A stretch of DNA of 64,000 nt, taken from sequence record PV292302.1. One strand, 5' to 3'. The notes beneath the pieces are model-generated. The model made no database searches. It was not told the DNA's origin and worked only from the letters and a program-made list of their open reading frames with translations. Each line of letters starts with the position of its first letter. Within the stretch, counting starts at the first letter, position 1. Positions 1-50,219 of the stretch are shown piece by piece. The position numbers and the translations under genes are program-made. This stretch comes from Escherichia phage Jgk1.

Positions 1-401
1 GTGGCAGGGGCTACACCCTTACACTATGACTACCCCCCCGGTATGTCACTAGTCGGTGTACTACCCTACCCCACCTTACACGTTACACATGCTCCGCATG
101 TTATGGACATGTCGTCCTATCACTTAACATTGGAGCTATCAGCATGACTACTACTGCTAACGTACGTATGACCGTAGGAACTTTACTCGGTACAGTTAAT
201 GGAGCAGCAACTACTGTTGCAGATACATTTGATACAGCAACTAAAGCCATTGGTATGGCTAACCTGTATGTATCTACTATGGCAGACAAGCAACGTATTC
301 GTACTAAGCTTGAAATGCATACCTTCGTTAACAAATTAGCTGAAGAAACAGCTATGGTAGAAACTCTTCGTAAGAAGAATATCGAAGAATTCTGCAAAGA
401 T
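1..401 (+). repeat. Direct repeat copy 1 (identical to 501-901)
   Basis: Read directly: 1-401 matches 501-901 base for base; divergence begins at 402 vs 902. Confidence 0.9.
87..101 (+). promoter_or_regulatory. N4-type vRNAP early promoter hairpin (6-bp stem, TCC loop; GGA on template strand)
   Basis: acatgc-tcc-gcatgt inverted repeat ~40 nt upstream of ORF 144; same architecture recurs 5 more times. Confidence 0.45.
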
Positions 402-428
402 TCCTCGCCCCTAGTACCTCCTATTTAA
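144..428 (+). CDS. Hypothetical early protein, duplicated gene copy 1 (94 aa, divergent C-terminus)
   Basis: ORF with GGAGC RBS 6 nt upstream; first 86 codons identical to ORF 644-967. Confidence 0.45.
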   Translation: MTTTANVRMTVGTLLGTVNGAATTVADTFDTATKAIGMANLYVSTMADKQRIRTKLEMHTFVNKLAEETAMVETLRKKNIEEFCKDSSPLVPPI

Positions 429-500
429 CTGCTTATAAAGAGTAATCCTGCAATATTTTTGCATACGGAAATGCTGATAGCTATGTACGAGTGCAGTGGT

Positions 501-901
501 GTGGCAGGGGCTACACCCTTACACTATGACTACCCCCCCGGTATGTCACTAGTCGGTGTACTACCCTACCCCACCTTACACGTTACACATGCTCCGCATG
601 TTATGGACATGTCGTCCTATCACTTAACATTGGAGCTATCAGCATGACTACTACTGCTAACGTACGTATGACCGTAGGAACTTTACTCGGTACAGTTAAT
701 GGAGCAGCAACTACTGTTGCAGATACATTTGATACAGCAACTAAAGCCATTGGTATGGCTAACCTGTATGTATCTACTATGGCAGACAAGCAACGTATTC
801 GTACTAAGCTTGAAATGCATACCTTCGTTAACAAATTAGCTGAAGAAACAGCTATGGTAGAAACTCTTCGTAAGAAGAATATCGAAGAATTCTGCAAAGA
901 T
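501..901 (+). repeat. Direct repeat copy 2 (identical to 1-401)
   Basis: Perfect identity to 1-401. Confidence 0.9.
587..601 (+). promoter_or_regulatory. N4-type vRNAP early promoter hairpin (duplicate of 87-101)
   Basis: Same hairpin inside repeat copy 2. Confidence 0.45.
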
Positions 902-967
902 GAGCAGAACGCTACTATCTATAACGCAGAATATGACAAGATTATCAACATCCTGTCTAAAAACTAA
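644..967 (+). CDS. Hypothetical early protein, duplicated gene copy 2 (107 aa)
   Basis: ORF with RBS; followed by hairpin gaatcccc-agaaa-tggggattc at 968-995. Confidence 0.5.
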   Translation: MTTTANVRMTVGTLLGTVNGAATTVADTFDTATKAIGMANLYVSTMADKQRIRTKLEMHTFVNKLAEETAMVETLRKKNIEEFCKDEQNATIYNAEYDKIINILSKN

Positions 968-1063
968 AACAAGAATCCCCAGAAATGGGGATTCAAAAAT
1001 TCATTAGATAGATAGTCTAAAAAGTAGATAGTTATTCATAGAAGTTCTACTTCGGAGATAGTT

Positions 1064-1243
1064 ATGTCAATAACAGATTGCAAATCTGAATCACCACAGG
1101 AAGCTTTAGAAAAGTTCGCAGAAGCTACTGCAAATCGTGCATTAGGTTCTGTCGGTATGGCTTATGAAACTCCTCAAAAACTTGAAGAAGAGTATCAGAA
1201 AGCTAAGCAAGAAGTTCTAACCTGGATGTCTTACATCCCTTAA
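1064..1243 (+). CDS. Small hypothetical early protein (59 aa)
   Basis: ATG at 1064 with GGAGA RBS ~6 nt upstream, TAA at 1241; below the track length cutoff. Confidence 0.35.
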   Translation: MSITDCKSESPQEALEKFAEATANRALGSVGMAYETPQKLEEEYQKAKQEVLTWMSYIP

Positions 1244-1258
1244 AGAAGCTCCGCTTCT
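1244..1258 (+). promoter_or_regulatory. N4-type vRNAP early promoter hairpin (agaagc-tcc-gcttct)
   Basis: 6-bp stem, 3-nt TCC loop, followed by atcgg; ~33 nt upstream of ORF 1291. Confidence 0.5.
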
Positions 1259-1290
1259 ATCGGTTATCCTTTTAATTCAGGAGTTTACTC

Positions 1291-1551
1291 ATGCAATTCA
1301 ATACTGACTTATTCTATGTAGATAGTCGTACTCAATTTGGTAGCTTTGCACAATCAAGCAATTCTGAATGGCAATTATGGTTCTCGGAAAAGAACCTTAA
1401 CTACAAGAATCCTGCTGTTATTGAACACAGATTTCCTGTAAAGCCTACCAAGCGCCAGGTACGTAAGCTGCGTCGTGCATTCCGTAAAGAATATCAAAAC
1501 AGCTTAGCTGAGTTCTTTGCTAAAGAAGGCTCAGCAGCTATGTATTGGTAA
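1291..1551 (+). CDS. Hypothetical early protein (86 aa) with basic KPTKRQVRKLRR motif
   Basis: ORF with AGGAG RBS; shares motif with ORF 2474-2662. Confidence 0.55.
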   Translation: MQFNTDLFYVDSRTQFGSFAQSSNSEWQLWFSEKNLNYKNPAVIEHRFPVKPTKRQVRKLRRAFRKEYQNSLAEFFAKEGSAAMYW

Positions 1552-1560
1552 ACCAAAACC

Positions 1561-1575
1561 AGACGCTCCGCGTCT
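1561..1575 (+). promoter_or_regulatory. N4-type vRNAP early promoter hairpin (agacgc-tcc-gcgtct)
   Basis: 6-bp stem, TCC loop, followed by aaagg; ~27 nt upstream of ORF 1602. Confidence 0.5.
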
Positions 1576-1601
1576 AAAGGATTCAATAACCGGAGAGTAT
1601 T

Positions 1602-1817
1602 ATGAAAGCTTTTAGAGATGTAGCCGATGGGGAAGTTTACTTCGTTAGAGGTGGCTTTGAGCTAGTTCGTGTAAATGAAAGTAGCGACTATAACTCTGTG
1701 CTAGTAGAAGATTCATCAATTGGGGTAAAACAACCAGATGATGAACCTACCTTCAGTTCTATGGATGAACTGAAAGCTGCCTATCCCGAAGATAGTGAAG
1801 CAGTGGAAATCTTTTAA
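1602..1817 (+). CDS. Hypothetical early protein (71 aa, acidic)
   Basis: ORF with GGAGAG RBS. Confidence 0.5.
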   Translation: MKAFRDVADGEVYFVRGGFELVRVNESSDYNSVLVEDSSIGVKQPDDEPTFSSMDELKAAYPEDSEAVEIF

Positions 1818-1823
1818 CAACAG

Positions 1824-1838
1824 GGCTGCTCCGCAGCC
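1824..1838 (+). promoter_or_regulatory. N4-type vRNAP early promoter hairpin (ggctgc-tcc-gcagcc)
   Basis: 6-bp stem, TCC loop, followed by tttgg. Confidence 0.5.
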
Positions 1839-1946
1839 TTTGGATGATTTATGCATCCACTAATCATTGAACTTTTATCCTTTTGTTTGGGTTTCCTCAC
1901 CGACGAGGTTACTCGCAAATCAAATCATTTATCTGGAGAGTACAAA

Positions 1947-2330
1947 ATGTCTATCGAAAAATTCACCTTTGGTAAAACCAACGCTGCTTCTAACTCTGCT
2001 GCTAAAGCTGATAAGCCTAAAGCACAGTTCTGGCTGAACATTGGCTATGTAGCTAATGAAGGCACAGAAGATGCTAAATTCATCAGTCTGCCTACTGGTA
2101 TCCCACTGGATACTCAGGAGCCATTGCCTACTAACAGTAGCAATGAAGACTTCCGTGCTATGCGTTCAGCACAGAATGACCTTCTGGCACAACTCATTGA
2201 GTTTGCTGAAGGTCTGGAACCAGGTGCTGAAGGTATCATTCAGCTTCAGGTTCAACTACGTCGTGTCAAAGCTCCTGCTGAAGAAATCAAGCCGGACGAG
2301 AATAAATATGCACGTAAGCTGACTTTCTAA
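1947..2330 (+). CDS. Hypothetical early protein (127 aa)
   Basis: Internal ATG of track ORF 1851-2330 with GGAGAG RBS; terminator follows. Confidence 0.5.
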
Positions 2331-2339
2331 TCAGCACAT

Positions 2340-2368
2340 GGACTCCCTTCGGGGAGTCCTTTTATTTT
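2340..2368 (+). terminator. Rho-independent terminator
   Basis: ggactccc-ttcg-gggagtcc hairpin followed by T-run. Confidence 0.7.
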
Positions 2369-2473
2369 AACTCGACGATAAACTAAGTTTAACTTTTAGG
2401 TCCTTTTCGACGAAGAGGTACTAAAACTCAAACACAGTTAATTAGACATATCTTAGAAGAAGGAATAACCAAG

Positions 2474-2662
2474 ATGCGTATAGTATGTAATCGCTTTAAT
2501 GCACAAAGAACTATTGAGCTGGTTAAGCCATACGGTGCAAACATGAGTATGGAATCTCGTTGGCAGGTGTCATTAGTAGACAGACGTCAACGTCATTATG
2601 ACCACTTCTTTGTAGCTAAACCTACTCGTAAACAAATTCGTAAACTTCGTAAAGGTCACTAA
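2474..2662 (+). CDS. Hypothetical protein (62 aa) with basic KPTRKQIRKLRK motif, paralog of 1291-1551 C-terminus
   Basis: ORF with GAAGGA RBS; motif shared with ORF 1291. Confidence 0.5.
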   Translation: MRIVCNRFNAQRTIELVKPYGANMSMESRWQVSLVDRRQRHYDHFFVAKPTRKQIRKLRKGH

Positions 2663-2664
2663 TC

Positions 2665-2856
2665 ATGAACAACGAACCTATGCCTCTCATTGGTAAAGTA
2701 ATACTTACAGTATTAGCTGTAATTGTGATTGCAGCAGTGTTCCTGACACTCGGTCCATTGGGTGGCATTGGGTTCTTTGCTTTTGCTGCTATCTCTGTGT
2801 TAAACCGTAGTCCACGTAGCAATGCTCGTGGACGAGATGAACCAGGTGGATTCTGA
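2665..2856 (+). CDS. Small membrane protein (63 aa)
   Basis: ORF with one long hydrophobic segment. Confidence 0.45.
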   Translation: MNNEPMPLIGKVILTVLAVIVIAAVFLTLGPLGGIGFFAFAAISVLNRSPRSNARGRDEPGGF

Positions 2857-3023
2857 TGAATCATTATCAACGTATGTGGATTAAAGCATATCAGGATTAC
2901 CTGGGTGCTGCTAAAGCCACTGCTGAAAAACGAGGGGAAGTACTTCATACAACTGAGGTATTTATGGCCCGTAAACATGCTGATGCAGTGACTAATTCAC
3001 TGAAGGAGCTTGAAAATGCGTAA
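2856..3023 (+). CDS. Small hypothetical protein (55 aa)
   Basis: ATG overlapping upstream stop (TGATG); in-frame to TAA 3021-3023; below track cutoff. Confidence 0.3.
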   Translation: MNHYQRMWIKAYQDYLGAAKATAEKRGEVLHTTEVFMARKHADAVTNSLKELENA

Positions 3024-3177
3024 ATCATTAATCATGGGAACCAGAGAAGATGTTATTAAGCGTCGTGCTAAACAAGCTACTGCTCAATCAATGCCTGTTA
3101 CTGGTAGTAGCAGAACATATAACATTAAGCCTAAGCAGTATATCGTAACCTTCAACCATCCAATCTTAGGAAACTAA
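3016..3177 (+). CDS. Small hypothetical protein (53 aa)
   Basis: ATG at 3016 overlapping previous ORF end; stop abuts ATG of ORF 3179. Confidence 0.3.
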   Translation: MRKSLIMGTREDVIKRRAKQATAQSMPVTGSSRTYNIKPKQYIVTFNHPILGN

Positions 3178-3178
3178 T

Positions 3179-3391
3179 ATGTACTTTATTATCTTTGTAA
3201 TGAGCTGGTTTGTAGTTGTATCTGTTAACCATTTTGCATCTTCTGTTGATAAGGGGTTGGTACACAATGGCAAGCACTTTCAACGTGGTATATGGTTGAT
3301 ATTAGCTAATTGTATCAAGGGATTCAATCTGGGTTATACAGTATGGTTTATCTATTACTGTGTAGTTAACTATCTTTATCAACTACTATGA
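3179..3391 (+). CDS. Small membrane protein (70 aa)
   Basis: ORF with two hydrophobic segments. Confidence 0.4.
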   Translation: MYFIIFVMSWFVVVSVNHFASSVDKGLVHNGKHFQRGIWLILANCIKGFNLGYTVWFIYYCVVNYLYQLL

Positions 3392-3453
3392 ACTGGCCTA
3401 TTAGCATTATCATGCTAGTGCTATTGGGCATTGGTGCACTACAACAACTAGGG

Positions 3454-3480
3454 GTCCTCTAAGGAGGACTTCTATTTTTT
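3454..3480 (+). terminator. Rho-independent terminator
   Basis: gtcctc/gaggac hairpin followed by tctatttttt. Confidence 0.6.
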
Positions 3481-3525
3481 ATTCCGAATAGTTAGACATA
3501 GATAGATATTGGAGAAACTATTAAA

Positions 3526-3834
3526 TTGTTAAATGAAATCATTTGTATCCCTCAGCATAAAGCACATATTGCAGAAAGGAATATTCGTATTCATCTGCCT
3601 ATGCCTTTATGTAATCCATTTCAGCGTAATGAGAGATTGAGCCAGGAGGATGTATCAGTAGCTTATGAAGCTTATCTGAAGAACAGACTCATTAATGGTG
3701 ACAAGCTCATCACTGCTGAGATGGAGAAGATAGCTAGCCTTGTCATGGACAAGACTGGTAAACCTGTTGGCCTTATTGGTGATGAACCAGAAGTCAACGT
3801 AATCCGTAGTTTAATATTAGAGGCAATCGGATAA
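3526..3834 (+). CDS. Hypothetical protein (102 aa), probable TTG start
   Basis: Track ORF begins at a TTG codon; GGAGA ~11 nt upstream; stop overlaps next ATG. Confidence 0.4.
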   Translation: MLNEIICIPQHKAHIAERNIRIHLPMPLCNPFQRNERLSQEDVSVAYEAYLKNRLINGDKLITAEMEKIASLVMDKTGKPVGLIGDEPEVNVIRSLILEAIG

Positions 3835-4058
3835 TGTTATACAACACTGATTATGGACTATGCCCAATCTGCAACAAACGGAAAGGAGTTGCCAAACATA
3901 ATAAGTGTTCTCGTATTCTTCAGAAGCGTAGAAATAAAGAAGAGTGGGATAACACTCTTAATTCACAGCGTGAGTACGAGAATAAGAGGACTGCTCGTAA
4001 AGCATCAACTCAGCTTATTCGTCGTAAAAATCACATTGAAGGATATCAGGGGGAATAA
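3834..4058 (+). CDS. Small Cys-containing basic protein (74 aa), zinc-ribbon-like CPICNKR...KC
   Basis: ORF; CxxC...C pattern plus Arg/Lys-rich tail. Confidence 0.45.
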   Translation: MLYNTDYGLCPICNKRKGVAKHNKCSRILQKRRNKEEWDNTLNSQREYENKRTARKASTQLIRRKNHIEGYQGE

Positions 4059-4342
4059 TGAAAGTTATCACCTATCCTACTCACAAAATAGCACTCTATC
4101 TTAATCAAAAAGTAGAAGTGCCATTATGGGTTAAATATATTGCAGCCTATCCTATGACGTATGGAAGTAGTAGTTCTGCATTAATTGGCTTTAGCCATAA
4201 ACCCAAATTCACTAAGACTGGTATCTGGAAAATACCACCTCAGCATAAGAAAAGTAGGCAGGAACAAATAGGTATTATCCGTGGATTTGCACCTGCTCGT
4301 AATGAAATTGAAGCTACTCTAAGTGAGGTTCTAATACCATGA
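4058..4342 (+). CDS. Hypothetical protein (94 aa)
   Basis: ORF in operon with translationally coupled neighbours. Confidence 0.45.
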   Translation: MKVITYPTHKIALYLNQKVEVPLWVKYIAAYPMTYGSSSSALIGFSHKPKFTKTGIWKIPPQHKKSRQEQIGIIRGFAPARNEIEATLSEVLIP

Positions 4343-4653
4343 CTACTATCGTAGTTCTGCATGACACCACATTCAAAGATGTGGATAAGATGATGAATAA
4401 CATAGACTATGTTGCTCAGCATTCTAAAGCATTCAATGGAGAGTTTACTCTCTATTGTGAACCAGAGTCACCATTGGCTCCTATACTTGAGGCTTCCGGT
4501 CTTCCGTTCAGTACTACTGACTTTCCAAAGGAACCTGACTTCGTTATCTCATCCATCTACGACTTACATGATGGTTCTAAAGCCAGTGAACTGGCAATGA
4601 ACCAGTGGAAATCTCGTCGTCCTGTATGGCCTTTTCAGGTGCTGAAACCATGA
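4339..4653 (+). CDS. Hypothetical protein (104 aa)
   Basis: ORF; start overlaps upstream stop. Confidence 0.45.
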   Translation: MTTIVVLHDTTFKDVDKMMNNIDYVAQHSKAFNGEFTLYCEPESPLAPILEASGLPFSTTDFPKEPDFVISSIYDLHDGSKASELAMNQWKSRRPVWPFQVLKP

Positions 4654-4892
4654 CCTATGAAGAATATTATGTATTTAAAAAGGGAGATGATTTTATAGCT
4701 ATGCCTGATGATTACAGAGATTGGCATACAACTTCTGTATTAAGTGAAGCATTTTCCGTACCTAACCTCGAAGAGGTTAATAGAGTAATGAACGGAGTAA
4801 TGCTAACTAGAGGGCTAGCTTACAAAATAGACGCATTAGAAGGAACTTCTGTATGCAAAGTCGTTACATCCATTGAGGTACTGAAACCATGA
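4650..4892 (+). CDS. Hypothetical protein (80 aa)
   Basis: Internal ATG of track ORF 4605-4892 overlapping upstream stop (ATGA). Confidence 0.4.
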   Translation: MTYEEYYVFKKGDDFIAMPDDYRDWHTTSVLSEAFSVPNLEEVNRVMNGVMLTRGLAYKIDALEGTSVCKVVTSIEVLKP

Positions 4893-5272
4893 AGATAAGC
4901 TCATTAGGTGATAACACCAATGCCTTATACGGTGTAGCTGCATGTCCAATTATTATTGTCAATAAACATCACAGTAAATCTGGTGAGTATATTGGGCGTG
5001 GCTCACCATTAGGTAATCCATTCATCATTGGTACGCATGGCGACCGTGAACAGGTAATTGCTAAATATGCTATGTGGTTACAAGAGCAGATTGATAAAAA
5101 CAATCCTGTTGTACTAAAAGAACTTAATCGTCTGGGTAATAAAGCCATTGACGAGAAAGGGTTAGCCTTACAGTGTTTCTGTTATCCGAAACCATGTCAT
5201 GGTGAGGTTATTAAAGAGAAGCTCGTAAAGGCTATGTACAAATACTTTGAGGAGCATCCAAATGGCATTTGA
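4889..5272 (+). CDS. Hypothetical protein (127 aa) with GRGSPLGNPF motif
   Basis: ORF; motif read in translation; family recalled only tentatively (DUF4326-like). Confidence 0.45.
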   Translation: MKISSLGDNTNALYGVAACPIIIVNKHHSKSGEYIGRGSPLGNPFIIGTHGDREQVIAKYAMWLQEQIDKNNPVVLKELNRLGNKAIDEKGLALQCFCYPKPCHGEVIKEKLVKAMYKYFEEHPNGI

Positions 5273-5594
5273 AGACATTAATCACCCATCACTATGGGGC
5301 ATTCAGCATATACCATCAGGTAAGTTGCTGAGGCAGTTTAATCATGGTTATGGTCATACACAGCTAGATGTGGAAGATGACCCACTGCACCCAAGAGTAC
5401 AACGTGGGATTGTATTATCACCTCGCCTATTTACTAGTGAAGACACAGCTAAACGTGCACTCATTCAGTGGCTACAAGGAGTTCATCGTAATGAATGGGA
5501 AGATGGACTGTATGTATATAACCCAGAAGTTCCTCGTATTAAAGAGGAGTTCAAAGTAATTCCTGTTTATTTGTATACCGACCAGAAGGAGTAA
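5262..5594 (+). CDS. Hypothetical protein (110 aa)
   Basis: Internal ATG of track ORF 5247-5594. Confidence 0.4.
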   Translation: MAFEDINHPSLWGIQHIPSGKLLRQFNHGYGHTQLDVEDDPLHPRVQRGIVLSPRLFTSEDTAKRALIQWLQGVHRNEWEDGLYVYNPEVPRIKEEFKVIPVYLYTDQKE

Positions 5595-5598
5595 CTGT

Positions 5599-5784
5599 AT
5601 GTCTAAGCAATGTAAGTGTGGTAAAGGCTACGTATCACTTTGGGATAACAAATGTGGTAAATGCCGAACCAAGAAGGAACAGAAAGACCATGAATATGCT
5701 CTTGACTGTGTATCCGAATGTCAGTGTGAGTCACAAGCTGATGCTATTAACTTTTACAAAGAAGTAAGGAATCATTGCAAATGA
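5599..5784 (+). CDS. Small Cys-rich protein (61 aa), zinc-ribbon-like
   Basis: CKCGK...CGKC...C..C.C pattern. Confidence 0.45.
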   Translation: MSKQCKCGKGYVSLWDNKCGKCRTKKEQKDHEYALDCVSECQCESQADAINFYKEVRNHCK

Positions 5785-6164
5785 AAGAAATCTTCGTATT
5801 CGGTTCTAACCTGGCTGGTATACATGGTGCTGGTGCAGCTAAGACTGCATATAAGAAACATGGTGCTCGTTGGGGAATGGGTGTAGGCCATTATGGTTGC
5901 AGCTATGCAATCCCAACCAAAGACCAGAACATCAAGACAATGAAACGTAGCGATATTGAGACATTCGTTGCAGGCTTTATTCTATATGCTGCTTCTCATC
6001 CAGAGTGGGACTTTAAAGTAACACGTATTGGATGTGATTTAGCTGGCTTCACTGATGCAGAAATGGCAGTACTGTTTGTTACAGCTACTGGAAACGTACT
6101 ATTCGATGAGGCATGGAAACCATACCTGGGTGATACCTATAACTATTGGGGAACATTCTCATGA
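5775..6164 (+). CDS. Hypothetical protein (129 aa) with Gly-rich FGSNLAGIHGAGAA motif, Rossmann-like
   Basis: ORF; Gly-rich loop near N-terminus; family unresolved. Confidence 0.45.
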   Translation: MQMKEIFVFGSNLAGIHGAGAAKTAYKKHGARWGMGVGHYGCSYAIPTKDQNIKTMKRSDIETFVAGFILYAASHPEWDFKVTRIGCDLAGFTDAEMAVLFVTATGNVLFDEAWKPYLGDTYNYWGTFS

Positions 6165-6246
6165 AAGAACTAGCTTACTTAATAGTCCTATGGGCTATCG
6201 GAGGAAGCATTGTATGGACACTCTCAGATTTACTTCTTAAGTAAAT

Positions 6247-6261
6247 AGCTGCTCCGCAGCT
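6247..6261 (+). promoter_or_regulatory. N4-type vRNAP early promoter hairpin (agctgc-tcc-gcagct)
   Basis: 6-bp stem, TCC loop, followed by tttcgg; ~30 nt upstream of ORF 6292. Confidence 0.5.
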
Positions 6262-6291
6262 TTCGGTAATTAATTAACTAGGAGATATGCG

Positions 6292-7110
6292 ATGTACTCA
6301 TCTATTGAACATCAGAAGCAACTGGAAACTCTGTTTAACAAGAATCAACTAATTCCTCGTATGAGGAAAGAGTTCGAAGACTCCAAAGACGTAGACTTTA
6401 AGGCATTTGCCGAGTATCTGGACATTGATTATAAGTTGCTCATTGATGCAATGGTTCAGATGGCACTACATAAACGTGCCGACCTGCCTACCTTAGTTGG
6501 CTCTCTTATGAGCCACAGTCATGACGCTCAGTATATTGCTGATTGTCTGTTGAAAATGGCAGAAAACGACTGCTTCAACTTTGACCCAAGCATTGACAAG
6601 TTCATCGTGCTGTATGGCATCAGTGAAGATGTACAGCTTGAGTTAGAAGCATTCCAGTATCCACTGCCTATCGTCAGTAAACCTAAGCCTGTACGGGATA
6701 ACCGTGACACAGGCTATTGGAATACTAAAGGCAGCATCATCCTCAAGAAGAATCACCATGAAATGGATGTCTGTCTTGACCACATCAACCGTATGAACAG
6801 TCAGCGACTGTGCATTAACTGGAAAGTAGCTAAGTTCGTTAAGAACTCCTGGGCTAACCTGGATAAACCTAAAGAAGGTGAAACCCGTCAGGACTTCGAG
6901 AAACGTGTACGTGCATTCGAAAAGTATGACCGTACAGCTAAAGACGTAATGGAGCTAGTGACTAAAGAAGGTAATAACTTCTCACTAGCTCATAAGTATG
7001 ACAAGCGTGGGCGTACTTACTCACAGGGTTATCACATCAACTATCAGGGAACCAGTTGGAACAAGGCTGTAATAGAGTTCGCTGATAAGGAGTTAGTAAA
7101 CGATGCGTAA
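6292..7110 (+). CDS. Phage RNA polymerase II small subunit (N4 gp15-like)
   Basis: 272 aa, directly upstream of the T7-like RNAP catalytic subunit gene; N4 gene order 15-16-17. Confidence 0.5.
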   Translation: MYSSIEHQKQLETLFNKNQLIPRMRKEFEDSKDVDFKAFAEYLDIDYKLLIDAMVQMALHKRADLPTLVGSLMSHSHDAQYIADCLLKMAENDCFNFDPSIDKFIVLYGISEDVQLELEAFQYPLPIVSKPKPVRDNRDTGYWNTKGSIILKKNHHEMDVCLDHINRMNSQRLCINWKVAKFVKNSWANLDKPKEGETRQDFEKRVRAFEKYDRTAKDVMELVTKEGNNFSLAHKYDKRGRTYSQGYHINYQGTSWNKAVIEFADKELVNDA

Positions 7111-7390
7111 AAAAGACTTTAAAGCCATCGCTCAATCCAAAGGTGGAATGGGCATACTGGCATTAGGAGAAGATGGTACAGTATTGTATAAGGCTTACGA
7201 CGTAATGACTGGTAAACCAGTCACTGTATGCCTCTTCTACGATGTGGATGCCTACTGGTCAATGCAGAATGCTATAGCAAACTTCAGTAATATCATGAAA
7301 GACCGTGACCAGAAGCCGGATTTAACTCCAGCTGACAAAGACTTTCAGTCAATCCTCAATGACCTGAAGAAACCAGGCAAACTTCATTAA
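7103..7390 (+). CDS. Hypothetical protein (95 aa)
   Basis: ORF. Confidence 0.4.
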   Translation: MRKKDFKAIAQSKGGMGILALGEDGTVLYKAYDVMTGKPVTVCLFYDVDAYWSMQNAIANFSNIMKDRDQKPDLTPADKDFQSILNDLKKPGKLH

Positions 7391-7406
7391 TACAAAGGTG
7401 AAATAA

Positions 7407-7574
7407 ATGACCGATAAGTATGAGCTATGGACTAAATGGCCAGGAGAAGACTGGAAGTTTTTCAAGTCTAGTAATGACATTGAGTATCTAAGAACTACGG
7501 CTAAACGTGTAACCAAAAGCTTAGGAATAAGCTGTAAAATTCATGCAGTAAAACGCTTTGAACAACCATTGTAA
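7407..7574 (+). CDS. Small hypothetical protein (55 aa)
   Basis: ATG with AAAGGTG RBS, TAA at 7572; below track cutoff. Confidence 0.3.
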   Translation: MTDKYELWTKWPGEDWKFFKSSNDIEYLRTTAKRVTKSLGISCKIHAVKRFEQPL

Positions 7575-7619
7575 TTAACCTAATGCGAGCCAACAGGCTC
7601 AAGACGCAAGGAATATAAA

Positions 7620-8837
7620 ATGCAAACTTTTACCGCTAAACAATATCTGGCTATCGACATTGCTAACAACTATGGTCTGGACAAGAAGACCTGGGACGAA
7701 CGTTTGGCATGGTTCGAAGAGAACAAAGGTAATTTGCTCAACTTAGTTGAATCAGCAGATGAACCGGCAATGTTCTATGCAGGTGTTGTAGCCTATCACG
7801 ACATGCTGGATGGTAAGCCTATCGGTTATACCGTAGCACTGGATGCAACGTCATCTGGTCTGCAATTACTGGCATGTCTCACTGGTGACCGTAAAGCAGC
7901 AGAACTGTGCAACGTAGTTAACTATATGGGTGATAACGGTAAGCCATTACGTCGTGATGCCTATACCGTTATCTATCACACTATGCTGGACATCGTAGGT
8001 CAGTCTTCCCGTGTTAAGCGAGATGACTGTAAGCAGGCTGTAATGACTGCATTCTACGGCTCTGAGGCTAAGCCTAAAGAAGTGTTCGGTGAAGGTATCC
8101 TGTTACGTACATTTGAGAACGTAATGGATACTTCTGCACCAGGTCCGTGGGCATTAAACAAGTTCCTGCTTCAGTGTGGTAACCCGGATGCTATGTCATA
8201 CCTCTGGGTACTGCCTGATAACTTCCATTGTCAGATTAAGGTAATGGTTCCTGAAGTTCAAACCGTGAACTTCCTGAACAAACCTTATGACATCACTCGT
8301 ATGGTTCAGGGTACTGAAGAGAAGACTCGTATGCTCTCCGCTAATACTACCCACTCCATTGATGGAATGGTGGTACGTGAGATGCTGCGTCGTTGTAACT
8401 ACGATGCTGACCTGATTACTTACGTTAAGCAGTTATGCTACGGGGTGCAGGAAAGCAATGTAGCTCTGGAAGAGAACTTTGACATGGTAATGCAGTTATG
8501 GAACCACTATGAGAAGAGTGGGTTCCTGTCCATGTACATCTGTAACTTCCTGGATGCAGGTTCTATCCATCTGGTAGACCGTCAGGTAATCCTGGACATG
8601 CTGGATACGCTTCCTAAGAAGCCATTCAAAGTGATGACCGTACATGACTGCTTCCGTTGCCATCCTAACTATGGCAATGACCTGCGTCGTCAGTACAACC
8701 AGATTCTGTCTGACATTGCCAAGAGTGACCTGCTGGGCTTCATCCTGAGCCAGGTACTAGGACAAGAGTTTTCTGCTGGTAAACTGGATAATGACCTATG
8801 GAAGGACATTCTGGAGACTGACTATGCGCTCAGCTAA
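7620..8837 (+). CDS. Phage RNA polymerase II large/catalytic subunit (T7-like single-subunit RNAP fold, N4 gp16-like)
   Basis: 405 aa; C-terminal MTVHDCFRCHP resembles the T7 RNAP HDSFG catalytic motif. Confidence 0.65.
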   Translation: MQTFTAKQYLAIDIANNYGLDKKTWDERLAWFEENKGNLLNLVESADEPAMFYAGVVAYHDMLDGKPIGYTVALDATSSGLQLLACLTGDRKAAELCNVVNYMGDNGKPLRRDAYTVIYHTMLDIVGQSSRVKRDDCKQAVMTAFYGSEAKPKEVFGEGILLRTFENVMDTSAPGPWALNKFLLQCGNPDAMSYLWVLPDNFHCQIKVMVPEVQTVNFLNKPYDITRMVQGTEEKTRMLSANTTHSIDGMVVREMLRRCNYDADLITYVKQLCYGVQESNVALEENFDMVMQLWNHYEKSGFLSMYICNFLDAGSIHLVDRQVILDMLDTLPKKPFKVMTVHDCFRCHPNYGNDLRRQYNQILSDIAKSDLLGFILSQVLGQEFSAGKLDNDLWKDILETDYALS

Positions 8838-8921
8838 ACTGTGGTTTGCTATATTCGCTGTAATTTATACAGGCTGCTCCCTGGCATTCAATATCTGGGT
8901 AACCTACTTCATGTAATAAAT

Positions 8922-8956
8922 AGCCACTCCTTCGGGAGTGGCTTATTTTTTTTTTT
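8922..8956 (+). terminator. Rho-independent terminator
   Basis: 9-bp hairpin agccactcc-ttcg-ggagtggct followed by a 13-T run. Confidence 0.8.
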
Positions 8957-9003
8957 TCTTTGACTGCATACTACTAGGGTTATTAACCCTAGAGGAAATT
9001 GCT

Positions 9004-36348: not shown

Positions 36349-36430
36349 GGGGGAGTAGTCAAGCGGTCGAAGACGGCAGACTGTAAATCTGTTATCCCAC
36401 ACGGTAGTTCGAATCTACCCTCCCCCACCA
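36349..36430 (+). tRNA. tRNA-Tyr (anticodon GTA), CCA encoded
   Basis: Hand-folded: acceptor gggggag/ctccccc, loop ctGTAaa, T-arm ggtag-ttcgaat-ctacc. Confidence 0.75.
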
Positions 36431-36431
36431 C

Positions 36432-36506
36432 GGTAAGTTAGCTAAATGGTGAAGCGGCTGACTGTTAATCAGTGATAGAGTGGTTCGAGTCCACTACTTA
36501 CCGCCA
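36432..36506 (+). tRNA. tRNA-Asn (anticodon GTT), CCA encoded
   Basis: Hand-folded: acceptor ggtaagt/acttacc, loop ctGTTaa, T-arm agtgg-ttcgagt-ccact. Confidence 0.75.
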
Positions 36507-36511
36507 TATTA

Positions 36512-45800: not shown

Positions 45801-48800
45801 AGGCAGATTACCTGACTTATCAAATTCAACCATCATATCTACAGCAGGTTTCAGTTTACCTTCCAGAGCAGTAGTAAGTTTCTCAGACATGGCTTCACGA
45901 GACATGTTGTGAACTTTAATACCGAGTGCCTGAGCCAGGCCAACCTGGAAATCAGAGAAGGTCTGTGAGTTCTGGTTAGAAACATCAATGGTAGAGAATG
46001 TAGGTAAGATAGCCTCACGAACCAGTTTACTAGACTGTGGGTTGTTCTTACCAAGCATCTGCATACGACCAACACGGGTCATGTTGTAAGCATAATGGAT
46101 AGGGGTTTCCAACCCTGCTTCTTGTTCCTGAACTTGTGACACAACACCAAACAGAGAATCATATGCCATAGCTACCGAGAGGTTTTTACCTTCCAGTGAC
46201 TTAGCAGTATTCACATTCAGTAATTCAGGGTTCAGAGTACCAGCACCCATTAATTCCAGAATGTTGTCACGTCCCATAGCTTCATAGAACTTAACCATTG
46301 GTTCATGAACACGGAACTCAGTAGCCTGTTCTGCTTTCAGGGCAGCTTTCTGTTCAGGGGTATTCTTAACAGCAGGGTTACGTAGCTGAGTTTGAGCCAC
46401 GGAAGGTACATCATCACCGAAGTACATTTTCTCTTCTGGTTCCACAAGCACTGCTTCTTCAATGGCAGTTGGGAACTTGTTGATAGCATCGTTATCGTCA
46501 AGCTTCTCAATGGTATACAGACCAATAGTCTTGTTAGAGTCTGGGTCAATCTCAGACACATCAAGCATGGACTCAGTAACTTCACCTATTTCTACCAGAG
46601 AGGACAGAATCTCAGTAGCCATAGCCATTGGGATACCTTTGGTATAACCCAGTGGTGCATCAGGATTACGATTAAGTCCCCAGTAAGACTCAATCTTTTG
46701 AGCCAGGGAGTTAGTAGCTTCGACCAGGGTCTGTGCATTATCAAAACTAGCCAAAATACCTTCAGGCAGCAGAGATGCATCAATGCCAGTAATAGCAGCA
46801 ATGTCTTTGATGTCTTTGGTAGCAGCATTCTGATTAGCAGTTAAACGCCATTGCAGTCCAGCAAGTACAGCAGTTTCAAGCAACTGGTCATTGAACTTGA
46901 AGGTATCCCCATCAGCTTCAACAATGTTCAGTAACTTACCACCAACCCAACGGTTAGCCTCAGTACCTTCAGCAAAGCGTTTGCCAACATTTTTATTAGC
47001 AAGGAACTTAGCCAGACGGTCTGACATGGTATTTTTCAGCTTGTCACCAAAGTCCATCAGAGTCTTATAACGGGCAATGACATCTGGAGTAAGTGCAGCA
47101 TTCTCACTCTGAGTGAACGTTTCAAAACGTGCAGCAGAAGACAGTGCCTGACCTACATCTTTCAGAGGAGACTCAGTACCAACGATACGAGACTTAGGCT
47201 CAATTGGAAGACTGAAAGCTTTAAGGAATTGGTTAGGTGTCTTCTCTGTATTATGCAGAGGATACACATTTTCCATTTCTGTTTTAGCTTCAACAGGTTC
47301 CTCAATAGCAATTGCCTTTTCAGACTCTGGATTAGTTACTTCTTCTGATTTTGGTTTAGTCTCATTAACAGGAGCAGTATTTTCTACCACTGGTTCTGCC
47401 TTAGGAGTTACAGTAGGTTTAGCCTCCTGAGTTTTTGCAGGAGTTTCATCAACCTGATTCACTGGTTCAGTAGTCTGTTGGGATTGAGCAACATCAAGAT
47501 TGCCTTGACGGAACTCTTTAACCACCTGGGCAGCAGGCTTGTCCAGACGTGAATCCAATGAGGTAACTTTAACATGAGAGACATTAAGCTCCGGGTAAGC
47601 CGTAGCAAGTGCATTAGCAATATCAGCTACGGTTTTGGCTTCCAGTCCTACTTGCTGGGCAAACTTAACAGACTTGGTATCGTAAGGATTAACACCGAGT
47701 CCAGTACGGCTGCGTACCCATTCACGGGATGGAGAAAGAGCCTCATAATGGACAGACTTATTCTTATCCGCATTCCCAGAAACCAAATGCTCATTCAACG
47801 CTCCGACCTTATTCTGCATGTGCTGGGCGAACTTCATAAAGTCGTCAAGGTAAGCGGAGGCCAAATCGAAGTTACCAGAGTTGTACGCAGAGCGAATGCG
47901 TTTAGCATGTTGCAACGCAGAGTACTGGCCTTCGTTAGAACGAGACTCATCGGTCTTAATTTGTTTACTAACGATGTCCTGAGGTCGTAAACCCAACTCC
48001 TCTGCCTTGGTATCGAACTCTCGTGCTCCCTGTAATACAGCAGCAGCAGATTGCAGGGCAGCACGTTGACGGTTACCCAGAGTAATTTTCCCTTCACTAG
48101 CATGTTTCAGAACCATGTTAACTGAATCGGCATCCAGTACTTCTGGAGAGATATCAGCAGCCATAGCAATATTATCTGCTTGTTGTTGAGTAGTATTCTC
48201 AGTAGCCTTCAACTGACCAGCTTCAGCTTGTTCCTGAATCATAGAGTGAATAGCACGGAAAGCACGAAGTACCTTAGGGGTATTCTGCACGTTAGCCATT
48301 AAGCCAGAGAACTGGTCAACAATAGCAGCAGCAGGGCTGTCCTTAGGCAGGTTATTAAGAGCACCTGGGTCACGATTAATGAAGCTATCCAGTGACATGA
48401 TGTTGTCATACATGTTCACAGCAGCTTCCATCTGCACGTTAGGGTCTTCGGCAGTATTAACCAAATCTGCCATCTTCTGAATAGCATCAACACGGTTAGT
48501 AGACTGAGCTACTGCCTCACGAACAACAGGGTGAGCTTGTTCCATTTCCACAGGGTCAAAGTTAACAGCCTGTGTCAGGTCATTTGCATACTGGTGTGCA
48601 GCAGCTTTCTCTTCTGGAGAAATATTCATAGCATCAACAGCATCAGCAACAGTGGTCTGTGCTTGTTCTGCTTGTTGAGCAGCTTCTTGTGCAGCAGCAT
48701 TAACCGTAGCATCAGCAACAGGGGAAGCCTGTTCATTCTGCTTAGCAAGGTTTTCACCACGTTGAACCAGGATGTTAGTAATTGGGGATGCAGCTTTAGC

Positions 48801-50219
48801 TACCACATTACCAGCAGCATTAAGACCAGCCAGGGTAGTACGGATAGCAGGACCAGCAGCAATACTTGCTGAACCAGCAGCAGCACCAGGAGCTTGAGCA
48901 ACCCCAGCAGAGCCAAAGCCATAAAGAGCACCCAGACCAGCTTGCTCACCAACACCTTTAAGAATGTCACGTTTTTCATCGACATTGCTCTTAATTGCAC
49001 GGTTCTGTGCATACTGACCAGCACCCGATTGAATACCTTCTTCAACCGTCTCACGAAGCATGTTGGAGCCAGCACCAGCCAGTGAACCTACCTTCAGTGG
49101 ATTAAGTTCAAACTTGGATACCAGTGGACCAGTTGCAGCAGCTACAGGAGCAGTGATTGCAGCAGCATCAATACCAGTTTCAGATGCAGTCTGACGACGT
49201 GCCTCATCTGGGGTCATACCATCAGCAATATGCTGTTTGTATAACGGAGACTTAGCCAGTAGTTCAGAGTGAGGCATCTTCATAATTTCAGATGCAGTTT
49301 GTTGATAAGCACCACCAGCTTCCATTGCACCAATAGCAATGGCAGGGGCAGCAATAGTACCAGCTTTAATAGCAGCAGTTGCTGGCTTATAGCCAAGCTC
49401 AGAAGCGAGAGTAATACCCTTAACGGCTTTCTCACCGAGCATAACTTTACCCAGTGCAGATACACCACGAATCAGTGGACCACCTGTAAACAGGGAACCA
49501 ACACCTTCCGCTAGCCCATCAGTTGCTGCCATCCCATTATCGAGAGTATTGGCAACAGAGTCGAAAGCGTCACGACCAATGCGAGACAAAGAAGCAACAA
49601 GAGGACTTTCACCATCTTTAATTTCCTGGTCATATTTGAATTGGTTAGCTTGTGCAGAAATCTGGTTCTGATTAGCTACAACTTTACGGGTTGCATTAAG
49701 TGCATCAGACTGTAGACCATGCATCCCTTCATTCAGCCAATCCATTCCAGAAGCAATGGTTGCCCCAGCATTATCATTGAGTAAACCTGCACCAAGAGCA
49801 GCAATGCCCCCAAAGGTATTAGCAACACCAAGACCAACACCAGAAGCAGTATCACCCAGTGCTTGTGCATTAGAACGTTCCATTGAAAGGTCTTGACGTA
49901 CTGCATCAGCAGCATTGGCACGACTGTTAAGAATCTGGAATCCTTGCTCAGTACCGTACTTAGTAATGATTTCCATAGGGGAGGCTTGCGTAAAATCAGC
50001 CTGAAGGGAACCTGGAGTGAAGGCATCAATACCTAAATTACCGACACGACCTGTCTGGAGATTATAGGCATTCTCTGGGGTTAATTGGAAAGGGCTTTGC
50101 CCTTGTTCAGCTTGCTTCTGAGAGGTTGCAGTAGAGACATCGACTTGCTTAGCATTAGTGATGCTGTCTGCGAAACCTGCCAGACGGTCAAATGTTGACA
50201 TGGCTTGTTTCCTGTTCAA
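39876..50219 (-). CDS. Virion-encapsidated RNA polymerase (vRNAP, N4 gp50-like giant protein)
   Basis: Single 3447-aa ORF; size and position typical of N4-like phages. Confidence 0.85.
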   Translation of the reverse strand: MNRKQAMSTFDRLAGFADSITNAKQVDVSTATSQKQAEQGQSPFQLTPENAYNLQTGRVGNLGIDAFTPGSLQADFTQASPMEIITKYGTEQGFQILNSRANAADAVRQDLSMERSNAQALGDTASGVGLGVANTFGGIAALGAGLLNDNAGATIASGMDWLNEGMHGLQSDALNATRKVVANQNQISAQANQFKYDQEIKDGESPLVASLSRIGRDAFDSVANTLDNGMAATDGLAEGVGSLFTGGPLIRGVSALGKVMLGEKAVKGITLASELGYKPATAAIKAGTIAAPAIAIGAMEAGGAYQQTASEIMKMPHSELLAKSPLYKQHIADGMTPDEARRQTASETGIDAAAITAPVAAATGPLVSKFELNPLKVGSLAGAGSNMLRETVEEGIQSGAGQYAQNRAIKSNVDEKRDILKGVGEQAGLGALYGFGSAGVAQAPGAAAGSASIAAGPAIRTTLAGLNAAGNVVAKAASPITNILVQRGENLAKQNEQASPVADATVNAAAQEAAQQAEQAQTTVADAVDAMNISPEEKAAAHQYANDLTQAVNFDPVEMEQAHPVVREAVAQSTNRVDAIQKMADLVNTAEDPNVQMEAAVNMYDNIMSLDSFINRDPGALNNLPKDSPAAAIVDQFSGLMANVQNTPKVLRAFRAIHSMIQEQAEAGQLKATENTTQQQADNIAMAADISPEVLDADSVNMVLKHASEGKITLGNRQRAALQSAAAVLQGAREFDTKAEELGLRPQDIVSKQIKTDESRSNEGQYSALQHAKRIRSAYNSGNFDLASAYLDDFMKFAQHMQNKVGALNEHLVSGNADKNKSVHYEALSPSREWVRSRTGLGVNPYDTKSVKFAQQVGLEAKTVADIANALATAYPELNVSHVKVTSLDSRLDKPAAQVVKEFRQGNLDVAQSQQTTEPVNQVDETPAKTQEAKPTVTPKAEPVVENTAPVNETKPKSEEVTNPESEKAIAIEEPVEAKTEMENVYPLHNTEKTPNQFLKAFSLPIEPKSRIVGTESPLKDVGQALSSAARFETFTQSENAALTPDVIARYKTLMDFGDKLKNTMSDRLAKFLANKNVGKRFAEGTEANRWVGGKLLNIVEADGDTFKFNDQLLETAVLAGLQWRLTANQNAATKDIKDIAAITGIDASLLPEGILASFDNAQTLVEATNSLAQKIESYWGLNRNPDAPLGYTKGIPMAMATEILSSLVEIGEVTESMLDVSEIDPDSNKTIGLYTIEKLDDNDAINKFPTAIEEAVLVEPEEKMYFGDDVPSVAQTQLRNPAVKNTPEQKAALKAEQATEFRVHEPMVKFYEAMGRDNILELMGAGTLNPELLNVNTAKSLEGKNLSVAMAYDSLFGVVSQVQEQEAGLETPIHYAYNMTRVGRMQMLGKNNPQSSKLVREAILPTFSTIDVSNQNSQTFSDFQVGLAQALGIKVHNMSREAMSEKLTTALEGKLKPAVDMMVEFDKSGNLPTDAVSILDTALGGDKSFVALMALMEYARYLNAEDKTKFTTPLYVEADGVTNGPINAMVLMTGGKFTPDWIRNTAKGGLFFGKRGKTMNEHRSQDDSVDLYEASTNSLQQALNELRNAYSNNVPVMNQMNHLQNLMDLFIKDFNLNEDGSLDLKRGIAKNPLTITIYGSGARGIAGKMVSAITDTIYERFSDVLQARAKNPDISPAMAMFGKEAASEADAEAMLKTFLDSMEALTGNVTVMRKGQLSVQPADGAITGKLDPQKFTVKGDALKNLQENMLHLFVEPMRTGIQNTVGEGLMYSTEQLQKATQIQSLVLQDMFQQAVQDKLAEKEKDPTWKKGDFLTQKELNDIQASLAPLAPMIETGSQTFYIAGSENTDVANQVLATNFDDRMRVPMSIYAPSQAGVAGIPFMTIGTGDGMMMQTLSTMKGAPKNTLKIFDGMNIGINDITDASQKANEAVYTSWQGNPIKDVYNSYAKFMKNVDFSKLSDETKKAIGKSALEFELREGATDQDLMMAATQIERNLRNIALGVDIRHTVMNQVQTTVDQMAAVGSPYVNNGQVILEGLTVDQQVAKLNELFDAELNKRRDAVRADKAEPVKEVPAMEQVGRVLKSGVRLLSNTAITKLLKEMTPEQQAVLNEIQKSQAAKDYKVVYGTLAQLDAYAVEKNITRPAPEDMEAAEAGNAYGWTNFEDKTIYLVTHSLETLVHELVHASTFESVLAHYEGTPNEAVQNIEDLMNQFRTLDVSKESPAMREAYADALNTINGHLSNGFIEPALAKSAALNEYMAWGLTNRELAAKQKKTSALKAMIQSVYDAIKRLVFGRKKAPANSDDMFSNLLFNSAVVMRSQAPTAAVSKDTTLFHSTAYGNNDRLAELGQTFDNLIVNYLGNEPVQQYIRKGKFSDALVNATKVTRDVQGHGFTMNMQEQRLFTNIVAALATEAAISPAALSRAQEYYAHVTKNLTVESFMADPNSTNPADRYYAQQKFDTITGANNIEFDAQGRSSLLPTFVGLAMVSEELRNVLAEMPVMKADKVTGNTVDAMLTNIGTSAMASLNARIAGDSKATNVQEGMDALAQTIMESSLNAQSFYDSVATPTGNAIDRANQYVIDGITQLADATLDKARTVAQTAKNPLVKATAHAAQLVAAVATEENGQIVAEGVMKAMNQGKVWQPFHDLINDLTGRTKSNASVYDLIKAVRSQIQADRQQFREHLPTTIASKFSRKLTKEEWKAMHTGMGKTDLAVLRDTMSLAEIRDLLSDQKIVDREVNKLEADLQNQAGRNWPLINRKSKQLAQFMINGTVGNNLLRNATAISRLLGERTAVKSTVDVAKLDKLITLYALEAMSKADRESLSSLAQSETDGIDFATSYLVGQRKDEMTKASADDRAALNHYKGYIPVENKQGVNLIVADDSQYSELLEKSYTRLGAYQGSSADRGRARSYYFSPVQAQAPFSQGILQNVRDTANGVDMGTGFTMGAMVAGRITDKPSVERISKALARGERGNEPLMPIYDNNGRVVAYEQSIDPNMLQHIAGDDHLAKAIGVWRGRQVEEAKAQQFNDVLIENLHAMYEKDISDSASNKSQYVNLLGSKLDPVTADALRLMNAETRRKAESLFGEGELWVRRDMLNDALGYRAASVGDVWSGNSRWSPETLSTFKKALLGAMGNNAYKYTMGGENLIQNLIKDAKTLIVVKSVVVPAVNFIANLYQMVARGVPLKNIAQGIPQKTSEINQYLKSRLRQVDAEAELRAATNPNQIRKLKAEIQSITDSHKRMSIWPLLEAGEFSSIADAGIGRDDILITEGKIYEYMDALANKLPKAVRTAGRYALITKDTALFQGIQKTVEYSDFIAKAIIYDELTKRKGKTREEALGRVTEEFVNYDRLPGRFRGYMESMGLMWFYNFKIRSAKVAVSMVRNNPVHAAMAMLAPTPTMFGNVGLPIQDNIFSIAAQGKLDYSWGFGQGLRAHNLNPWMNIVN

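Follow-up and report, generated by a model that had tools for sequence, protein, structure and literature searches.

Early transcription of coliphage N4 starts at three experimentally mapped promoters, P1–P3, each of which consists of a GC-rich heptamer centred at −11 between inverted repeats and forms a hairpin with a 5–7 bp stem and a 3-nt loop (reviewed by Lenneman and Rothman-Denes, PMC4496689). The virion-encapsidated RNA polymerase (vRNAP) of N4 specifically recognises template −11A/G, −10G, −8G and +1C. In particular, −11G is stacked upon by W129 and read, together with −10G, by K114 and R119; D901 and R904 recognise −9C, −10G and −8G; and the spacer acts as a ruler that sets the start 8 nt downstream of −8 (PMC4496689). 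Supercoil-driven hairpin extrusion and activation dependent on single-stranded DNA-binding protein (SSB) are known for N4 only (PMC4496689). Among N4-like phages, four putative early promoters, P1–P4, have been reported in KP8 (PMC6950046), and ONT-cappable-seq mapped nine early starts in LUZ7, the majority of which have N4-like hairpins (PMC9163698). Here, we analyse a 64,000-nt stretch of Escherichia phage Jgk1 (PV292302.1; hereafter the window), in which six small hairpins in front of early genes are very probably early promoters for a virion-encapsidated, T7-like vRNAP, with a presumed mode of action like that in N4. The case consists of the architecture of the hairpins, their non-random occurrence, their orthology to N4 P1–P3, the covariation of their stems in relatives and the conserved contact residues of the polymerase.

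The window comes from an N4-like podophage (Schitoviridae, Enquatrovirinae), whose nearest records, Shigella virus Moo19 and several Gamaleyavirus phages, match it with only ~82% identity over 40–84% of the query. The six hairpins described in the initial annotation occur exactly where it had placed them, each with a perfect 6-bp stem and a TCC loop (Table 1), and all of them are intergenic, on the + strand and within the first 6.3 kb. Because window positions 1–401 are identical to 501–901, sites 87 and 587 count as a single site, which leaves five independent sites and agrees with the earlier count of at least five distinct sites, one of them duplicated. Two further details of that description stand in part. 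Of the T-rich/GG element said to follow each stem, the GG is the conserved feature: at all six sites the hairpin is followed by three spacer bases and then by GG, which thereby lies at +11/+12 from the loop centre, whereas the spacers (TAT, ATC, AAA, TTT and TTC) are A/T-rich, with one C in two sites, rather than T-rich. The proposed distance of 25–45 nt to the next open reading frame (ORF) holds for four sites (42, 32, 26 and 30 nt) but fails at site 1824, where the first ATG (1851) is 12 nt past the hairpin and the other candidate ATG (1947), which has a ribosome-binding site, follows only after 108 nt.

The non-template core GCTCCGC occurs six times in 64 kb, each time at one of the six hairpins, although the count of this heptamer alone is not significant (2.64 expected). 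For the full rule, which asks for a TCC loop on a 6-bp stem closed by GC pairs and for GG at loop centre +11/+12, 300 dinucleotide shuffles give an expectation of 0.003 per 64-kb window against the six observed. Relaxed scans of both strands of the whole window, allowing N(T/C)C loops, any 3–5 nt loop closed by GC/GC, and stems of at least 4 bp, returned no further family member with the core and a G start. When the template strand of each site is folded as single-stranded DNA, the result is precisely the expected hairpin, with energies of −4.5 to −6.4 kcal/mol that fall in the range of N4 P1–P3 (−3.7 to −7.3 kcal/mol).

Read on the non-template strand, the N4 rule is GC-T(C/T)C-GC with a G at loop centre +11. 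All six window sites conform to it and carry every published sequence determinant, namely the stem, the 3-nt loop, the template −11 purine, −10G, −8G and +1C. The same scan applied to N4 recovers P1 (centre 96, loop TTC), P2 (565) and P3 (4554) before gp1, gp2 and gp15, respectively. The window sites likewise lie in the left-end early region, co-oriented with the gp1, gp2 and RNA polymerase II (RNAP II) genes, and sites 87/587, 1824 and 6247 are positional orthologues of N4 P1, P2 and P3 with shared flanks and downstream genes. Specifically, the flanks of 87/587 (cgttacAC...tatGGACATGTCGTCC) are conserved in N4 P1, G7C, KP8 and others; the leader of site 1824, GGATGatttatGCATCC..., is conserved with N4 P2 and KP8 P3, and N4 P2 shares the GGATG...GCATCC leader together with gp2; and site 6247 has its hairpin, its GGTAATTAA leader and the RNAP II gene in common with N4 P3 and also with Moo19, IME11 and others. 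The promoter directly before the RNAP II genes, listed in the initial annotation among the sites by which this phage exceeds N4, is therefore present but not new, since it is N4's own P3 (gp15 start at 4603).

The window vRNAP shares 66% identity with N4 gp50, rising to 70% in the mini-vRNAP domain, and keeps the N4 contact residues K114, R119, W129, D901, R904, K849, K850 and K268, while K267 is replaced by N; no residue through which the N4 enzyme contacts promoter bases is altered. From its sequence, this enzyme (39876–50219) is predicted to read the hairpin promoters. The principle invoked at the outset, a vRNAP that recognises a template-strand hairpin with a 3-nt loop as in N4, is thus supported by the determinants, the positions, the vRNAP contact residues and the conservation.

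Comparison with related genomes shows that the hairpins are kept with compensatory stem changes. In an ungapped alignment of 53 promoter instances from 18 genomes (the window and 17 relatives), G14, C15, T16, C18, G19, C20 and the second G of the GG are invariant, and the GG stands at loop centre +11/+12 in 52 instances. Stem cells are 97% paired with 47 double-sided changes, a level reached in none of 500 shuffles, while slid registers are 13–46% paired.

The two sites that N4 lacks also have counterparts. Orthologues of the 1244 promoter with its ORF are found in NAN33P5 (L003:3355), K57alpha1.2 (L005:9017), SP5M (L010:900), U1G and an IMG/VR contig (L015). Site 1561 is the orthologue of KP8 P2 (962–983), which is annotated as "early promoter" and precedes KP8 ORF4, and window 1555–2499 aligns to KP8 956–1918 at 80% identity. 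The GGCTGC hairpin that comes next in KP8 bears the "early promoter" label as well. The closest gp1 (97%) belongs to the IMG/VR contig UViG_3300024308_000028 (L012), which has three promoters only, one of them between gp1 and gp2. The upstream flank of this single promoter resembles that of window site 1244, its hairpin that of site 1561, and its downstream part the region after 1824. With L012 as the reference, this mosaic match indicates two insertions in the window, both of a single-gene unit that includes a promoter.

Several variants of the pattern were seen in the relatives. The P2 orthologues of NAN33P5 (L003:3637) and K57alpha1.2 (L005:9299) have a TCT loop, which places an A at template −10 with all else kept; contrary to the −10G requirement of N4, these may be natural down-mutants or tolerated variation. 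The fourth hairpin of G7C, AACGC-TCC-GCGTT (L007:509, and L006:2594 in the right terminal repeat), is followed by CG instead of GG at +1/+2, and it lies inside a 1160-nt terminal repeat and hence is present in two copies per genome. Additionally, several of the relatives L003, L009, L010, L011, L012 and L015 have an extra small ORF that directly follows +1/+2 of P3, its own leader being only ~10 nt long, and the conserved gp15 leader continues behind it; no such ORF is present in the window (6265–6292), N4, Moo19 or IME11. At the RNA level, the predicted 5' end of the P1 transcript (105–117, 605–617) can form a hairpin GGAC-atgtc-GTCC, and that of the P2 transcript (1842–1858) a hairpin GGATG-atttatg-CATCC, which holds the first ATG of the long gp2 frame 9 nt from the predicted start. 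Both 5'-end hairpins are conserved in N4 and in all examined relatives.

Table 1. Predicted early promoters, early genes, terminator-like sites, vRNAP gene and direct repeat of the 64-kb window.
Feature	Position	Strand	Sequence or match	Predicted start	Context
P1-type hairpin promoter, first-repeat copy (N4 P1 orthologue)	87–101	+	ACATGC-TCC-GCATGT	G105	precedes truncated gp1 copy, ORF 144–428
P1-type hairpin promoter, second copy	587–601	+	ACATGC-TCC-GCATGT	G605	gp1 homologue 644–967 downstream
Extra hairpin promoter (predicted)	1244–1258	+	AGAAGC-TCC-GCTTCT	G1262	ORF 1291–1551 downstream
Extra hairpin promoter (predicted)	1561–1575	+	AGACGC-TCC-GCGTCT	G1579	ORF 1602–1817 downstream
P2-type hairpin promoter	1824–1838	+	GGCTGC-TCC-GCAGCC	G1842	gp2 homologue downstream
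P3-type hairpin promoter	6247–6261	+	AGCTGC-TCC-GCAGCT	G6265	RNAP II subunit genes downstream
Exact 401-nt direct repeat (1–401 = 501–901)	1–901	+			carries P1 and 5' part of gp1
gp1 homologue	644–967		PHROG 5020, E=1.5e-44		
ORF 1291	1291–1551		86 aa; DUF7279		
ORF 1602	1602–1817		71 aa; PHROG 2183		function not assigned
gp2 homologue, RNAP II cofactor	1851–2330, or from ATG 1947		PHROG 4099, E=2.4e-47		
RNAP II subunit	6292–7110		PHROG 2166, E=2e-116		
RNAP II subunit	7620–8837		PHROG 2051, E=2e-172		
Terminator-like hairpin and T-run	2340–2359	+			after gp2 homologue
Similar terminator-like hairpin	3449–3474				
Similar terminator-like hairpin	8922–8943				
Virion RNA polymerase (vRNAP)	39876–50219	−	3447 aa; end-to-end match to solved N4 vRNAP structures		

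By analogy with N4, we infer that transcription initiates at the hairpin sites and depends on gyrase and SSB. After injection of the genome, negative supercoiling would extrude the inverted repeat as a small cruciform, and host SSB would melt the non-template arm and leave the template hairpin 5'-NNNNGC-GGA-GCNNNN-3', both steps being taken from N4. The vRNAP would then bind this hairpin through the contacts described for N4, with W129 on −11G, K114/R119 at −10G and −11G, and D901/R904 reaching −9C, −10G and −8G via the major groove of the stem, and the first nucleotide of the transcript would be GTP, paired with the template C that lies 11 nt downstream from the centre of the loop. Five early units are expected from this arrangement: P1 would serve gp1 with read-through into ORF 1064, the 1244 site ORF 1291 with its DUF7279 domain, the 1561 site ORF 1602, P2 the gp2 gene and the genes downstream of it, and P3 the two RNAP II subunits. 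The two extra promoters would be parts of single-gene insertions between gp1 and gp2, which bring or keep a promoter of their own, and the sixth hairpin (87–101) would be the copy of P1 in a repeat that matches the terminal repeat. On the downstream side, the terminator-like sites at 2340, 3449 and 8922 probably delimit early transcription units.

Some observations weigh against this assignment or against parts of it. A literature search returned neither transcript 5' ends nor biochemistry for the phage of the window or its close relatives, and likewise no mapped start sites or early promoters of G7C or Gamaleyavirus. In LUZ7 the mapped start is 13–14 nt from the hairpin centre, not 11 (PMC9163698), and the exact +1 in the window might differ from 11 nt as well. 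The predicted extra promoters at 1244 and 1561 may not be as active as P1–P3. Single 33-nt segments give modest folding z-scores (−1.2 to −2.8), which is what stems of 6 bp would be expected to produce. Moreover, the covariation is partly circular, because the instances were chosen by a rule of at least 4 bp of stem, so that only the two outer stem pairs were free to fail; these are 100% and 82% paired.

The only alternative with some weight concerns the two extra sites, which could be weak, inactive or used at a later stage. In practice they would then not be vRNAP promoters but inactive copies that arrived with imported units, or they would be read by RNAP II with its cofactor. The middle promoters of LUZ7 are indeed also GC-rich hairpins, with stems of at least 6 bp and loops of 3–4 nt (PMC9163698), the 1244 and 1561 sites are absent from N4 and from 12 of 22 relatives, and natural breakers of the N4 rule exist in the TCT loop at P2 of NAN33P5 and K57alpha1.2 and in the CG at +1/+2 of the second G7C site. 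Nevertheless, both sites carry all vRNAP-specific bases (−11, −10, −8 and +1) at the exact spacing and on 6-bp stems like those of P1–P3, and in several relatives they are conserved along with their ORFs. According to PMC9163698, RNAP II of the N4 type uses sequence motifs and starts at T, not at hairpins. The window RNAP II and gp2 are both of the N4 type. We therefore regard inactivity or later use of the two sites as improbable.

Hairpins that follow genes closely could instead act in RNA, as terminators or as stabilising 3' stem-loops of the upstream genes. The positions fit such a role, since hairpins 1244, 1561, 1824 and 6247 begin 0, 9, 6 and 6 nt after the preceding stop codons, the first of them directly after that of ORF 1064–1243, and hairpins 1824 and 6247 are followed by TTT and TTC. 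The sequences do not: none of the six is called as a + strand terminator, for want of a T-run, while the sites at 2340, 3449 and 8922 are, and an invariant asymmetric TCC loop, GC/GC closing pairs and a GG at fixed distance have no role in termination. Additionally, the P1 copies at 87 and 587 have no upstream gene, and the N4 orthologues are mapped promoters. Intrinsic termination was rejected because a GC stem followed by a T-run is found on the + strand at none of the six, and a function in RNA of either kind is very unlikely. Equally slight is the chance that the elements, which are 15-bp near-palindromes in front of genes, serve in duplex form as operators to which a dimeric regulator binds. 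The outer stem positions vary freely yet stay complementary, with double-sided changes in four of six pairs, and such free but compensated variation is the signature of a structure rather than of base-specific recognition of a duplex; besides, the central triplet is asymmetric and keeps a constant orientation relative to the genes. A sigma-70 promoter reading was rejected, as no −35/−10 consensus match with 16–18 nt spacing overlaps any hairpin region; sigma-70-like matches are depleted in 1–9000 (9 versus 23.8 ± 5.8 expected).

With the hairpins taken as vRNAP promoters, their number can be compared across the group. We scanned the early regions of 22 relatives with TCT-loop variants allowed. 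Three hairpin promoters are present in 12 of them, namely N4, Moo19, IME11, PhAPEC7, Mimir124, PD38, 24-32N, ECBP1, pSb-1, PhAPEC5 (whose record apparently begins after P1) and two IMG/VR contigs. Four are present in the other 10 (G7C, SP5M, St11Ph5, U1G, KP8, VLCpiP4b, NAN33P5, K57alpha1.2 and two IMG/VR contigs), and five occur in the window only. Since more than three early hairpin promoters are already documented, five is ordinary variation of the kind seen in relatives, and the new element is only the co-occurrence of both extra units, which gives five distinct promoters.

A further reading is that the number of vRNAP promoters evolves fast in Enquatrovirinae (3, 4 or 5 per genome) and that single-gene promoter-plus-ORF units are swapped in and out between gp1 and gp2, with the ~25-nt promoter core as the recombination joint. 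Such joints, if real, would be the N4-world analogue of the PeSL cassettes of T4-type phages, in which, according to PMC2839356 and PMC4122927, conserved promoter/stem-loop motifs flank variable early genes at points of module swapping. Against 16 relatives, homology breaks at 1820–1859 in 13 and at 6240–6279 in 14, but the breaks are equally strong at boundaries without promoters (2640, 4640, 5260, 5600 and 8820). Promoter-mediated shuffling thus finds no specific support, and the breaks look like ordinary mosaicism at gene boundaries; we keep it as a doubtful reading.

As to what the finding means, the five predicted starts and five units amount to a testable early transcription map of an undescribed N4-like coliphage, and they add to the evidence that the three early promoters of N4 are not a family constant. 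The extra promoters would mark ORF 1291, with DUF7279, and ORF 1602 as immediate-early genes and hence as candidates for host take-over. It has been suggested that each of the ~4 injected vRNAP molecules serves one of P1–P3 (PMC13434306). Five promoters together with the terminal-repeat copy of P1 would, if true, exceed ~4 vRNAP per virion and argue against one polymerase per promoter, but the promoter count bears only lightly on that speculation. The five-promoter finding leaves the understanding of the N4 system unchanged.

The copies of the 401-nt direct repeat that duplicates P1 are spaced by exactly 500 nt. Between them, the 99 nt at 402–500 have their homologue in the unique tail that immediately precedes the right-end terminal repeat of relatives, and the counterpart of the repeat itself is the terminal repeat annotated in G7C and in Mimir124. 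The first copy yields the truncated gp1, which ends in a different C-terminus, DSSPLVPPI. The arrangement could be a real duplication, or an artefact of assembly or circularisation of a direct terminal repeat of ~401 nt; the right end of the genome lies outside the 64-kb window.

Among the genes behind the promoters, gp2 has two candidate starts. At the protein level, its 32-codon N-terminal extension (1851–1946; ...SGEYKM) is kept in N4, KP8 and G7C, whereas the PHROG 4099 profile does not begin until the internal ATG 1947, in front of which stands a GGAG ribosome-binding site. In Pfam and PHROGs, the ORFs behind the extra promoters receive no function beyond DUF7279 and PHROGs 2375 and 2183. 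Look-ups of the exact proteins of ORF 144–428 and ORF 1602–1817 returned no recorded match. ORFs 1291–1551 and 2474–2662 both match PHROG 8921 and share the basic motif KPT(K/R)(R/K)Q(V/I)RKLR, which is C-terminal in ORF 2474 and internal in ORF 1291, so that they look like paralogous small basic early proteins.

Downstream of gp1, a hairpin at 973–994 (GAATCCCCAGAAATGGGGATTC) is followed on the + strand by A-rich rather than T-rich sequence and scores as a terminator on the minus strand only, whereas N4 has a T-run terminator after gp1. Read-through past gp1 into ORF 1064–1243, which has no promoter of its own, seems likely. Just upstream of this ORF lies an imperfect 28-nt direct repeat (ATAGATAGTCTAAAAAGTAGATAGTTAT and ATAGAAGTTCTACTTCGGAGATAGTTAT; 1008–1065), whose motif GATAGTT is found upstream of N4 P2 too. 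Elsewhere in the window, five tRNA genes (Tyr, Asn, Pro, Gln and Ile) are clustered on the + strand at 36349–36844. In the public record of K57alpha1.2 (OY979416.1), the annotation is out of register, and features named 'DNA primase' and 'Sak4-like' lie over the gp1/gp2 region.

Compared with N4 P1–P3, the window promoters share the architecture, the GCT(C/T)CGC core, the GG at +1/+2, the positions, and homologous leaders and polymerase. They differ in number, with five distinct sites against three in N4, and in their uniform TCC loops and 6-bp stems, where N4 has a TTC loop at P1 and stems of 5, 7 and 7 bp; moreover, two sites are predicted to drive single small ORFs that N4 is without. In the Klebsiella phage KP8 (Kaypoctavirus), P2, ORF4, P3 and gp2 are collinear with window 1555–2499, and its P3 hairpin, GGCTGC-TCC-GCAGCC, is the same as that at 1824–1838. 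Unlike the window, KP8 lacks the unit of a 1244-type promoter and ORF 1291 and has an extra ORF after the last promoter, and its promoters were predicted by similarity to N4, not mapped. Conversely, a 1244-type promoter (AGAAGC/AGATGC-TCC, then attGGATATC) precedes a small ORF in the gp1–gp2 interval of SP5M, St11Ph5, U1G, G7C, NAN33P5 and K57alpha1.2, but none of the four-promoter Gamaleyavirus phages, in whose records the promoters are unannotated, also has the KP8-type unit, whereas the window combines both. The Pseudomonas phage LUZ7 is likewise N4-like and has many early starts, most of which combine an initial G with a 3-nt loop on a stem of at least 4 bp (PMC9163698), but it belongs to a distant genus, starts farther from the hairpin centre and shows no sequence homology to the window sites. 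Finally, the window resembles the T4-type PeSL cassettes in having promoter/stem-loop motifs beside variable early genes, and differs from them in both the polymerase and the motif.

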